NCBI GenBank assembly: GCA_946408925.1 | Contig: CAMJUE010000003.1 | Coordinates: forward strand, 14,628-78,627 | Direction: 5' to 3' | From: an uncultured Methanobrevibacter sp. | Lineage (GTDB): Archaea > Methanobacteriota > Methanobacteria > Methanobacteriales > Methanobacteriaceae | Length of the DNA stretch: 64,000 bases | Shown: positions 42,997 through 46,731 of the stretch, piece after piece | Position numbering within the stretch: position 1 is the first letter of the stretch | Layout of the letters: every line of letters begins with the position of its first letter | Program-made: the position numbers and the translations under genes | Notes under the pieces: generated by a model | Told to the model about the DNA's origin: nothing | Seen by the model: only the letters and a program-made list of their open reading frames with translations | Database searches by the model: none

Positions 42997-44709
42997 CTAA
43001 TTGAATCTCACATAGGACTTGTTGAATCCTAAAACATTCGTATACTCGAATTCACAATTGTTTTCTCGTAATTTCTTGATTGTTTGAGATTCACTGAATT
43101 TATCATTAGAAAATGGGTTATATAGATTGCCGTTATCTATAAACTGGATTACTGCCTTATCCTTCATTATTCTTACTGTAATGTCGATTTCATCTACTGA
43201 AAGTTCATGTTCAAGAATGTTTTCGCATATTCCATTCACTGATGATAAGAATAGCTGGGCATTGTCCTTGAATATTGTTTCAATTTTTTCTAAAATTTCT
43301 TTAGGATATTCCTTTTTGCCTTTATGATATGTGAAATTAACATGATTTGAATCCTGAAGCAATAGGATACTTTTGATTTCATTTTTATGAGATCTTTGGA
43401 GATGTATGGCCATTCCAATATAAATTAAAATAGGCATTGTTTCAGACAACAGAATCGCAATCCATATGCCGATTCCGCCTAAAATGTGAGTCAATATCAA
43501 TGCGGCCGTAATGGAAATCAGAAACTCTTCGGTAAATATGATTATGAATGAAATCCTGTTTTGTTCAATGGCCTGAGCATAATTGGCCAAGAGATATGAC
43601 AAGCATCTGCCGATCAATCCGAATGAGGTTATGCGTATTGAAAAACTAACGATTTCAACATATGTTGGATCGGTAATGTTGAACAGCTTAATCAATATAT
43701 CCGGATAGACAAAGAAAAGAGCCGCAATAGGCACGCTGACAATTAGAATCTGCTTGATTGATTTTTTGATTATGTATTGCACAGCCTTGAAGTCCATTTC
43801 CTTATAGAACACCGCCACAATCGGACTCATCGCCTTCATGATTCCGGAAAGGACAATGTATACGAAAGTTTCGGAGTTGTCATATACAAGAAAAGCCAAA
43901 AGTCCCGCCGCACCGTAATAGGTGGAGCAGAGATATGTGAAAACCGCCATCTGAATTGAGAAGAAAATCTTTCCGACGACCTCTGGAGTGTTGAGAAGTA
44001 TGGTTTTGAAGGAATTCAACACCTGTCCTATCTTCATTTTAGCGACTGAAACGAAATGGAAGGTACGGTTTTCACTGAACAGGTATTTTGAGATATAGAC
44101 CACACCTACGGCATATCCGACAACTGTTGATAGAGCCGCTCCTTCAATTCCCATATTGAAGCCTTTCATGAATACAAAGTCGAATATTATATTCGTAATA
44201 TTGGCTATCAGCACTGAATAGAAAGGCAAATTAGGATATCCGTCAGAACGAATGAAATATGAAATCACTATAATGAAACAGTTTAGCGGATAGAAGAACA
44301 TTATTGAAAACAGATAGCTTTTAGCCTGATTGAAAATGTTTGAGGGAATGTTAAACATGTGCAGTATATTGTCGGCAAAAAAGAATATTGACACAATATA
44401 TATTAGGGAGACTGTGACAATCCCGATAATTGAAACCGTGAAATAAAAATTGGACTTTTCCTCATCCAAATCAGATTTTGCCCTTAAGGCCAGCAAACTG
44501 CCTCCCTGACCAAAAAGGATATATAAAATGCCTGTAAAATAAAGCAAGGGAGATACTGAATTTATTGGAGAGAGCTTTGAACCTCCAATAATCATTCCAA
44601 TTATTATGACATCTATAACGACTGCAATCTTTTCAGACATTACCATGAACAATGTGGGAATCAACAGCTCATAATACTTGTCCTTTAAGAATTGATATTT
44701 CCTTTCCAT
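42997..44709 (-). CDS. MATE family efflux transporter with a degenerate C-terminal HATPase_c-like domain
   Basis: About 12 TM segments with NIIFDFVF...GIEGAALST. Tail ENILEH...FIDNG..YNP...VLGFN. Confidence 0.8.
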   Translation of the reverse strand: MERKYQFLKDKYYELLIPTLFMVMSEKIAVVIDVIIIGMIIGGSKLSPINSVSPLLYFTGILYILFGQGGSLLALRAKSDLDEEKSNFYFTVSIIGIVTVSLIYIVSIFFFADNILHMFNIPSNIFNQAKSYLFSIMFFYPLNCFIIVISYFIRSDGYPNLPFYSVLIANITNIIFDFVFMKGFNMGIEGAALSTVVGYAVGVVYISKYLFSENRTFHFVSVAKMKIGQVLNSFKTILLNTPEVVGKIFFSIQMAVFTYLCSTYYGAAGLLAFLVYDNSETFVYIVLSGIMKAMSPIVAVFYKEMDFKAVQYIIKKSIKQILIVSVPIAALFFVYPDILIKLFNITDPTYVEIVSFSIRITSFGLIGRCLSYLLANYAQAIEQNRISFIIIFTEEFLISITAALILTHILGGIGIWIAILLSETMPILIYIGMAIHLQRSHKNEIKSILLLQDSNHVNFTYHKGKKEYPKEILEKIETIFKDNAQLFLSSVNGICENILEHELSVDEIDITVRIMKDKAVIQFIDNGNLYNPFSNDKFSESQTIKKLRENNCEFEYTNVLGFNKSYVRFN

Positions 44710-45031
44710 AATATAATATTTAATTTGCATCTATATAATTGCAATTCTTTCAATAAATGTATCTTTCTGAAAATCAAGAAGACATATATTCAGAACCAAT
44801 CCAGGAGTTTTGATAGGAACATCTTTCGTAAATCTAATCTGAAAACAAAATCGACAAATTTTTTCTAAGAGTCTAAATCTTTATTAATTACAAATTATTA
44901 AGTTATAGTATTGAATCTATATTTCATAATTTAAAGATTAACATTTTTCTTCATAATATTGTTAAAATGAAATAATGATTAATATTTTTATTAGTTTACA
45001 AATTAATTGTATTTTTATTAGAGGTTATTTA

Positions 45032-45406
45032 ATGAAAATTGATGGTGAAGTTACAACCGGTTTGGGAAAGGCAGCATATTTCCTGTCACAGGAATTTTAC
45101 ACAAGGGAATTTAAGAAAAATCTGGGATTCATACCATACCCAGGAACACTGAACATCATCGTAAGCGATGACTACCTTGATGAAATCAATGAGGTTAAGG
45201 ACAGTTGTGAAAACATTATCAAGCCGGACACAGAATTTGGAGCAGTAAACTATATTGAAGCTGTTTTAAATGATGAAATTGAAGGCGCAATAGTTTTTCC
45301 GGCAAAAACAACTCATGATGAAAATTATCTGGAGTTCATTGCTGAAGATAGGTTAAGGGATAAATTGGGCATTGAAGATGGAGATATTGTATCTTTGGAA
45401 TTTTGA
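45032..45406 (+). CDS. ribK: CTP-dependent riboflavin kinase (archaeal)
   Basis: G.V.TGLGKA..F, LGF.PYPGTLN, P.KT.H....EFIA...LR. Start at the ATG after GAGGT. Confidence 0.92.
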   Translation: MKIDGEVTTGLGKAAYFLSQEFYTREFKKNLGFIPYPGTLNIIVSDDYLDEINEVKDSCENIIKPDTEFGAVNYIEAVLNDEIEGAIVFPAKTTHDENYLEFIAEDRLRDKLGIEDGDIVSLEF

Positions 45407-45410
45407 TACC

Positions 45411-45428
45411 ACAAACTATTTTATATAT
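45411..45428 (+). promoter_or_regulatory. archaeal BRE/TATA promoter of the riboswitch-ribB transcript
   Basis: CAAACTATTTTATATAT, with TTTATATA at 45420-45427, about 25 nt upstream of the aptamer 5' end. Confidence 0.6.
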
Positions 45429-45445
45429 GACGAATATATTTTTTA

Positions 45446-45580
45446 ATACGTTCTCAGGGGAGGGTGAAAATCCCCACCGGTGGTGATTTTTAAAATAAAA
45501 TAAGTCCACGAGCACCAGGAAGTGCTGATTTGGTGAGATTCCAAAACCGACGGTGACAGTCCGGATGAAAGAGAAGATAA
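45446..45580 (+). ncRNA. FMN riboswitch (RFN element) aptamer
   Basis: P1 TTCTC/GAGAA; AGGG-TGAAAAT-CCC; ACCGGTGG...AGTCCACGA; AGCAC/GTGCT; TTTGG-TGAGATT-CCAAA; ACCGACGG-TGACAGT-CCGGATG. These match the RFN consensus elements in order, upstream of ribB. Confidence 0.93.
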
Positions 45581-45633
45581 TAGATTATATAGTTATTTTT
45601 AACCCTGGTTCTAGTAAATAAGGAGATATTACT

Positions 45634-46317
45634 ATGAATCAAGAAACTAATTTAGACAAAGCATTAGAAGCCATCAGGAATGGTGAATTTGTACTAGTTT
45701 TTGACGACGATGACAGGGAAGGGGAAGTTGACATGATTATCGCTTCCGAATTTGTAACCCCTAAATCAATTGCAACAATGAGAAACGATGCAGGCGGATT
45801 AATCTGCAACTGTCTACACTCTGATTTTTGTGATGCAATACATTTGCCTTTCATGGTTGACATTATGGCAGCGGCAACCGAAAAATATCCGGAACTTGCC
45901 GAACTTGCACCTAACGACATTCCATATGATGAGAGATCCTCATTTTCAGTTTGGGCAAATCACAGAAAATCATTCACTGGTGTAACAGACCATGACAGAG
46001 CAATGACCATTAGCGAAATGGCTTTGATGATGAAAGAAGAAAGATTTGATGAATTTGGTGCAACATTCCGCTCACCGGGCCATGTATGTCTTTTAAGAGG
46101 AGCAGACGGACTTGTCAAAAACCGTCAGGGACACACTGAAATCGGCCTTGCATTATGTGAAATGGCTGGTGTGACTCCTGTATGTGTGGTTTGTGAGATG
46201 ATGGATGGTGAAACCGGACAGGCCACCAGTGTTGCAGATGCTCGCAAATACGCCGAAGAGAACGGTTTAATACTATTAAAAGGCGAAGATATTATTAATA
46301 AATATTTAGAAGAATAG
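45634..46317 (+). CDS. ribB: 3,4-dihydroxy-2-butanone 4-phosphate synthase (archaeal type)
   Basis: DDDDREGEVD, GLIC, archaeal insert LPF...DIPYDERSSF, TGVTDHDR, FRSPGHV, RQGHTE, CEM. Preceded by an AGGAG SD. Confidence 0.95.
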   Translation: MNQETNLDKALEAIRNGEFVLVFDDDDREGEVDMIIASEFVTPKSIATMRNDAGGLICNCLHSDFCDAIHLPFMVDIMAAATEKYPELAELAPNDIPYDERSSFSVWANHRKSFTGVTDHDRAMTISEMALMMKEERFDEFGATFRSPGHVCLLRGADGLVKNRQGHTEIGLALCEMAGVTPVCVVCEMMDGETGQATSVADARKYAEENGLILLKGEDIINKYLEE

Positions 46318-46731
46318 CTAATGAGGCTGATTGCACTTATTGGCTATGTATTGAGCAACAAATTCCATAATTTGTTGATATTTGTAGGAATTATAAATGC
46401 TGAATGCGACATATCTGCCGTCATGCATTTTAATTTCTAAACCATTTTTCATTTCTTTTGACTTGTTTATTTGAGAAATTTTATTCCAGGGAACTCTTAA
46501 TGTCTTGCTTTTCAATGCTTTTTCTATATGAATTCCGTCATCCTGGAATTTTACAACCTTAACCAGACGGCGGTTGATATCGGAATTTATTTGGATGTCG
46601 CCGTTTTCATCAAAAACATAATCCGGAATTAGACAGGTTGCCTTCCAGCCCTGTTTCATTTTTTTAAGAACATGTGCCCTGTCTTTTTTTGTAAGCTTAA
46701 CTCCCTTTTCAGGACTCAGATTAAGTGCCAT
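46318..46731 (-). CDS. hypothetical protein (possible PH-like fold)
   Basis: 137-aa ORF abutting the upstream gene, with an F.DDGI.I......VPW..I pattern. Confidence 0.6.
   Translation of the reverse strand: MALNLSPEKGVKLTKKDRAHVLKKMKQGWKATCLIPDYVFDENGDIQINSDINRRLVKVVKFQDDGIHIEKALKSKTLRVPWNKISQINKSKEMKNGLEIKMHDGRYVAFSIYNSYKYQQIMEFVAQYIANKCNQPH

Follow-up and report, generated by a model that had tools for sequence, protein, structure and literature searches.

The leader of the ribB gene of an uncultured Methanobrevibacter sp. holds a complete FMN riboswitch like that of E. coli ribB, likely derived from a bacterial riboswitch-ribB cassette; with a probability that we put at about three in four, it blocks initiation of ribB translation when FMN is present. 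The element, in its chimeric setting, is a variant of the E. coli ribB switch. Both the RNA class and the mechanism are well known. The presence of FMN riboswitches in archaea is likewise already known; the function in this organism is predicted, and living intermediates make the capture of the element traceable. The window referred to below is the whole 64,000-nt stretch of DNA that we analysed, and positions are those of the window (Table 1).

A scan of the window with the Rfam covariance models gave a single match, to RF00050 at 45446-45580 (112.6 bits, E 2e-25, model positions 1-138 of 138), which is also the only RF00050 match in the whole genome. The gathering cut-off is 66.2 bits, and the covariance-model check proposed in the preliminary description therefore returned a strong match rather than a sub-threshold one. 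The match lies in the putative 5' leader, 53 bases ahead of the riboflavin gene ribB. All six RFN helices and both T-loops that had been reported from reading the sequence are present. Compensatory pairs had been claimed for three helices; the claim holds for P3 and P5 relative to E. coli, and it fails for P6, which has the commonest form. We aligned 39 of 115 distinct leaders (20 of 88 from the genus, 16 of 24 from other archaea and 3 of 3 from bacteria; duplicates were dropped from the counts of 88 and 24, and loci L066 and L071 were left out). In this alignment, 96.6% of cells in the aptamer helices were paired and 9 of the 26 pairs showed double changes; none of 500 shuffles reached the score, and 36-58% of cells were paired when the strands were slid.

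Table 1. Features of the ribK-ribB locus, in positions of the window
Feature	Position	Strand	Basis
ribK, archaeal CTP-dependent riboflavin kinase, 124 aa	45032..45406	+	PF01982 (CTP-dep_RFKase), 118 bits
BRE-like CCACAAAC and TATA-like TTTATATA	45409..45427	+	sequence; profile over 88 distinct genus leaders
TATA-like TTTATATA	45420-27	+	sequence
FMN riboswitch aptamer (RFN element), P1-P6	45446..45580	+	Rfam RF00050
P1	45451-55/45571-75	+	read in sequence
P2	45462-64/45472-74	+	read in sequence
P3 GTGG/CCAC	45480-83/45506-09	+	read in sequence
P4	45511-15/45522-26	+	read in sequence
P5 TTTGG/CCAAA	45529-33/45541-45	+	read in sequence
P6 CGG/CCG	45551-53/45561-63	+	read in sequence
T-loops TGAAAAT, TGAGATT	45465-71, 45534-40	+	read in sequence
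FMN contacts G10, G11, G32, A48, G62, G84, A85, A99	45457, 45458, 45479, 45511, 45527, 45549, 45550, 45565	+	PMC6298564 numbering
U-tract ahead of anti-P1 strand, possible aCPSF1/FttA termination site	45593..45600	+	sequence
Anti-P1 strand CCCTGG, predicted ON helix with aptamer TCAGGG 45454-45459	45603..45608	+	complementarity
Sequestering stem over AUG and codons 2-3, predicted OFF state	45606..45641	+	45606-45617 pairs with 45629-45641
Shine-Dalgarno-like AGGAG, in 11-base loop of sequestering stem	45621-45625	+	sequence, fold
ribB, archaeal-type DHBP synthase, 227 aa, bacterial-type MNQ start	45634..46317	+	TIGR00506, 258 bits

The eight FMN-contact bases listed in Table 1 separate true switches from C. 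difficile variants (PMC6298564). We placed the contact numbering on the Fusobacterium vincentii copy, where a single register fits, and found all eight bases kept in the methanogen aptamer; the lone visible departure in the core is a C to G change at 45460. We conclude that the element is a true member of RF00050 and, from the eight conserved contacts, predict that it binds FMN.

The gene upstream had been named as the archaeal CTP-dependent kinase, an assignment borne out by the PF01982 match and by MJ0056 as the best PDB match (E 5e-19). RibK consists of the kinase domain only, with no DNA-binding domain: it covers only positions 92-215 of the wHTH-kinase model, and its score against NCBIfam ribK_Meth (102.5 bits) is below the cut-off of 168. 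Because ribK stands upstream of the riboswitch, it is not under riboswitch control. RibB scored 298 bits against the 227-aa PDB chain 1pvw, in an alignment with one gap, and 75 bits against 1g57/1iez; 1pvw is the enzyme of M. jannaschii and 1g57 that of E. coli. Bacterial and fungal DHBP synthase chains scored 70-103 bits, with gaps at the archaeal-type insert that had been described for RibB and that is visible in these alignments. The closest named relatives of the protein are Methanobrevibacter records (up to 98% identical), and the gene is the only ribB in the genome.

The BRE/TATA-like box is conserved among the 88 distinct genus leaders, with A at 90-93% at -38/-37 and T at 91-93% at -32 to -30 from P1. 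The layout that had been given as about 25 nt from TATA box to aptamer and about 55 nt from aptamer to ribB agrees with our coordinates, with 18 bases from the box to the model start, 23 to P1, and 53 from the model end to the ATG. The rule for spacing between TATA box and start site places the predicted start near 45448-45450. A scan for bacterial promoters and terminators gave counts at the chance level, with no terminator in the leader. In RNA run X1, identical assembled contigs span 45163-45567, from the end of ribK into the aptamer, and 45538-45776, from the aptamer into ribB; because the run covers 27 of 30 bins across the surrounding region, these contigs may have come from DNA, and no start, strand or level follows from them. 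The riboswitch had been described as wired into a ribK-ribB locus. The two genes do adjoin the element at the source locus, where the ribK-ribB gap is 227 bases, but the leader has a promoter-like box of its own and its distance from ribK is variable: the end of ribK lies at most 280 bases from the ATG in 53 of the 88 genus leaders, lies farther away in 26, and is absent from the fetched flank in 9.

Downstream of the aptamer lies a putative expression platform, which the preliminary description had missed. Its anti-P1 strand is predicted to form an ON helix with TCAGGG in the 5' part of the aptamer. The complementarity is kept, with 97.4% of cells paired over the 39 leaders and 18-54% when slid; covariation of the helix in the same leaders was not above that of shuffles (149 of 500 reached the score). 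All seven pairs of the helix are present in E. coli and six in the source genome, which lost the seventh by a C to G change in the aptamer and a G to A change in the anti-P1 strand. Across the genus, the G to A change occurs in none of 68 leaders that retain the partner C and in 9 of 20 with a changed partner, in at least two RibB clades, a pattern that fits selection on ON pairing without proving it. In ligand-free equilibrium folds, the ON helix had a probability of 0.06-0.10 in the source genome, compared with 0.65-0.98 in six relatives. With the helix forced in the source genome, nine pairs of the AUG stem stayed in place and the AUG was mostly still paired.

Folded alone, the downstream part of the leader forms a 12-pair stem over the AUG. 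This predicted OFF stem had 96.0% of cells paired in the 39 leaders (23-54% when slid) and double changes in 10 cells, compared with 1.8 in shuffles. The double changes fall at 2 of 11 pairs (A-U/G-C/U-A at one, G-C/A-U at the other), a count of pairs that is not above shuffles (74 of 500) in sequences that are related. The Shine-Dalgarno-like motif was unpaired in the ON and OFF folds alike; we found no 16S 3' end in the source assembly with which to compare it. By computation, the energy needed to open the ribosome footprint was 8.5 kcal/mol in the OFF state, with the aptamer set aside, and 4.7 kcal/mol in the ON state, with the anti-P1 helix forced, a difference that arises partly by construction because the anti-P1 helix and the AUG stem overlap. 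The cost was no lower (8.3-9.4 kcal/mol) when the blocked stretch was one of 6 bases beginning upstream of 45602. The OFF cost exceeded the ON cost in 81 of 88 genus leaders, 20 of 24 other archaeal leaders and 3 of 3 bacterial leaders; the 7 genus leaders with no difference in the expected direction include the remodelled type with an MSK start. That platform is found in the clade of L020, L024, L047, L053 and L122 (L122 being M. intestini); the predicted difference is reversed in L020 (-2.7 kcal/mol), and the switch of this clade may work otherwise.

The arrangement is that of the E. coli ribB leader, which has an anti-P1 stem (ON), a sequestering stem (OFF) and a Rho layer, and which senses FMN during transcription (PMC11571811). 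The two leaders have in common the RF00050 aptamer, the anti-P1 strand and the sequestering stem over AUG-AAU-CA, with the stem strands identical at 13 of 16 and 12 of 13 bases, and both RibB proteins start with MNQ. The platforms of the Aeromonas and Halomonas ribB leaders are homologous to that of the methanogen, as is that of E. coli. A blastn search of E. coli genomes with the source leader gave no match, and homology to the E. coli leader was established through the intermediate locus L034. By contrast with E. coli, the methanogen has an archaeal host, a TATA-type promoter and an archaeal RibB (29% identical to that of E. coli); its spacer from P1 to ATG is about half as long and lacks the E. 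coli middle region, its leader lacks the extended P4-type arm, and a U-tract precedes the anti-P1 strand, where E. coli has no such run.

Homology to E. coli and the pairing described above suggest how the switch would operate. The archaeal TATA promoter would start the RNA just ahead of P1, and the aptamer, given its conserved contacts, would bind FMN. In cells without FMN, CCCUGG (45603-08) would pair with UCAGGG, break P1 and strip the outer three pairs of the AUG stem. In cells with FMN, the aptamer would hold UCAGGG and the full 12-pair stem would shut the AUG; no RibB would be made, and synthesis of lumazine, riboflavin and FMN would fall. It is this predicted FMN-dependent repression of ribB translation to which the probability given at the outset applies. 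More speculatively, the untranslated RNA might be terminated by aCPSF1 in the place of Rho, a factor that to our knowledge is not known in archaea.

An unlikely alternative is that the main output is premature termination at the U-tract by aCPSF1/FttA, with the AUG stem secondary. T-runs of at least 5 occur in 85 of 88 genus leaders and 22 of 24 other archaeal leaders (107 of 112), and E. coli has none directly ahead of the anti-P1 strand; the source genome encodes aCPSF1 (TIGR03675, 1001 bits), which acts on U-tracts in Methanococcus (PMC8716108), and the E. coli switch has its Rho layer (PMC11571811). However, such runs are cheap in a spacer of 25% GC, L009 has no U-tract, the source leader has no terminator hairpin, and the conserved AUG stem carries double changes, all of which count against this alternative.

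Somewhat less likely again, the switch of the source strain could be partly decayed or nearly fixed, giving a low constant level of RibB with little response to FMN. The weakened ON helix with its low equilibrium probability, and the changed base after the G10-G12 run, are consistent with this view, and a fully decayed copy exists within the genus (L134). On the other hand, all eight FMN contacts are kept, the score of 112.6 bits is inside the genus range of 105.7-118.8, and the same two-base state of the ON helix occurs in 8 of 88 genus leaders from at least two RibB clades; moreover, the E. coli switch makes its decision while it is being transcribed (PMC11571811), so that equilibrium folds mislead. 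These points count against a decayed switch.

Of 36 other genomes from the genus, 35 had an RF00050 score above the cut-off, the lone miss being a genome that is 77% complete; three overlapping draws from the genus gave 35/36, 15/15 and 34/35. The riboswitch is therefore nearly fixed in the source genus. In the family Methanobacteriaceae, 58 of 150 sampled genomes, belonging to 9 of 26 genera, have it, as do 61 of 135 genomes of a third draw that overlaps the others. It was not found in small samples of 14 genomes from other families of the order, 1 from the class and 9 other archaea, or of 28 genomes from two other archaeal phyla. The source assembly is 88% complete and in 133 contigs, as might befit a bacterial contaminant or an assembly chimera, but we consider this explanation negligible because the riboswitch is spread across genus and family, because genomes of the genus, single-contig ones among them, have this leader ahead of this archaeal gene, and because an archaeal histone lies in the window together with ribK.

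The preliminary description explained ribB as the target by its position at the step that diverts a pyrimidine precursor shared with F420. RibB supplies the four-carbon co-substrate, and lumazine synthase is the step that consumes the shared pyrimidine. The F420 rationale is weakened and is not needed: ribB is also the only riboflavin gene under an FMN riboswitch in E. coli (PMC5397151), as it is the single riboswitch target in the methanogen, and the target was probably inherited, because in relatives the riboswitch still precedes the bacterial ribB with which it came.

Each of the 24 riboswitch loci fetched from outside the genus lies ahead of a gene for a RibB that is 62-70% identical to that of E. 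coli and 27-32% identical to the source RibB, and these proteins start with MNQ or MNH (for L040, an upstream start is needed). Among the remaining 19 positive genomes outside the genus, 16 have the riboswitch ahead of a bacterial-type ribB by coordinates; the other 3 do not appear among the matches listed and gave only weak, bacterial-level matches to the archaeal ribB query. The Methanobacteriaceae cassettes (g15, g17, g20, g22, g25, g28, g29 and g30) have the aptamer and platform of the source genus, differing from it in the bacterial type of the downstream RibB. With the source query, g17, g20, g25 and g28 gave no archaeal-type ribB match; in g22, g29 and g30 the positive genomes have both ribB types, as do two of those in g15, with the archaeal one elsewhere. 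Riboswitch-less sister lineages have the closest archaeal RibB (61-72% identical), no aptamer and no MNQ, with no Rfam match in 10 loci, and ribK abuts archaeal ribB in L133, L135/L154 and L137/L157. Because copies outside the genus precede bacterial ribB, and because ribK abuts archaeal ribB in riboswitch-less sisters, the leader was likely grafted from an acquired bacterial ribB cassette onto the native archaeal gene.

Phylogeny is consistent with this graft. The leader tree grouped the source genus with g15/g17/g25/g28 at 100/100, apart from Methanobacterium-like and bacterial leaders, although the bootstrap was not fully settled and shared A+T drift may contribute; the P3 and P5 letters of the aptamer are found in Fusobacterium too. 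The earlier proposal of a bacterial RNA sensor on a native archaeal gene agrees with the archaeal type of RibB, with relatives' leaders on bacterial ribB and with the leader tree. The bacterial cassette lies beside ribK, facing away, in 7 of the 24 loci (L036, L041, L042, L044, L049, L050 and L057); in L041, a cob gene directly follows ribK and there is no archaeal ribB. In a RibB tree of 31 rows, from which the Halomonas row was left out, the gut-clade bacterial-type RibB fell next to E. coli on a long branch. The RibBs of g20/g22/g29/g30 cluster with proteins named Methanobacterium, and Methanobacterium-like RibBs reach 80% identity to those of the Desulfotomaculum and Desulfobacterota types. 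A single acquisition of bacterial ribB was not rejected (p-AU 0.29); one and two acquisitions are alike compatible with the tree and cannot be told apart. None of 15 genomes of the genus had both ribB types in tandem, each having one match, which counts against the proposed graft. As a history, a bacterial riboswitch-ribB cassette would have entered gut Methanobacteriaceae; several lineages would have kept it whole, often losing archaeal ribB, and the source genus would have retained no more of it than the leader and first few codons, joined to archaeal ribB behind ribK.

Several loci bear on how such cassettes vary. Methanobacterium-like loci (L031-L035, L037, L043 and L056) hold a near-intact bacterial riboswitch-ribB cassette, mostly beside a separate archaeal ribB, and in several of them a strand past the anti-P1 helix complements the 7 bases that precede P1. 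In a rabbit-gut Methanobrevibacter (L134), the region about 40-160 bases before ribB has a decayed aptamer, with the anti-P1 strand lost together with it; there is no Rfam match at E 0.05, MNQ and the Shine-Dalgarno motif are kept, and RibB is nested in the genus, making this a natural loss. On a Clostridium estertheticum plasmid (L173:536-640), a related ribB has an FMN-like aptamer and a hairpin-plus-U-run platform, which illustrates that ribB genes of this type travel on plasmids and exchange platforms. Archaeal-type ribB matches in G136, G201 and G172 each have one internal stop codon.

An FMN match in M. ruminantium is reportedly listed in the Infernal tutorial. PMC5780412 cites an Infernal annotation of that species and archaeal riboswitch surveys by Gupta and Swati, and in 2017 FMN riboswitches were described from computation as occasionally present in archaea (PMC5473149), as the preliminary description had anticipated in allowing for computational hits in methanogens. 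In the same year they were called restricted to Bacteria (PMC5397151), a statement against which stands the near fixation in a large genus of gut methanogens. The latter paper lists Methanobacteria as having no RbkR and no known flavin regulator, and as having kinase-only RibK. RbkR, the archaeal riboflavin kinase/regulator, exerts FMN-responsive control of archaeal rib genes, as we predict for the riboswitch; unlike it, RbkR is a protein with an N-terminal wHTH fused to the kinase, which the source RibK lacks. Because RibK is kinase-only in Methanobacteria, as in the source genome, the riboswitch may fill this regulatory gap. In 2021 the fluoride riboswitch of Thermococcus kodakarensis was the sole natural archaeal riboswitch described as validated (PMC8241225), and in 2024 no other native one was listed as such (PMC11549558); like the methanogen element it is natural and presumed translational, and unlike it, it is an ion sensor and an ON switch. 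The available parts of PMC10450193, PMC13035836 and PMC12452182 held no mention of an archaeal FMN riboswitch, and a search of titles and openings, with few subscription journals, found no description of the platform or graft and no functional test.

It is a tentative and rather doubtful proposition that the full sequence of events took place, in which a switch captured with its gene was re-attached to a native gene, replaced RbkR and exchanged its Rho layer for aCPSF1 at a new U-tract, giving a working archaeal riboswitch for an organic metabolite. The locus offers a direct test case of whether such a riboswitch works with archaeal ribosomes and polymerase, and a traceable case of regulatory RNA moved between non-orthologous coding sequences. 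It may also yield a native tool for repressible expression in methanogens, and its RNA is a candidate target for roseoflavin or ribocil in rumen methane producers.

Two genes flank the locus. A 137-aa protein with no Pfam or NCBIfam family is encoded at 46318-46731 on the minus strand, convergent with ribB and with adjoining stops. On the other side, a 577-aa MATE transporter (42997-44730, minus strand) is divergent from ribK and has a C-terminal extension of about 130 aa beyond the MatE match.
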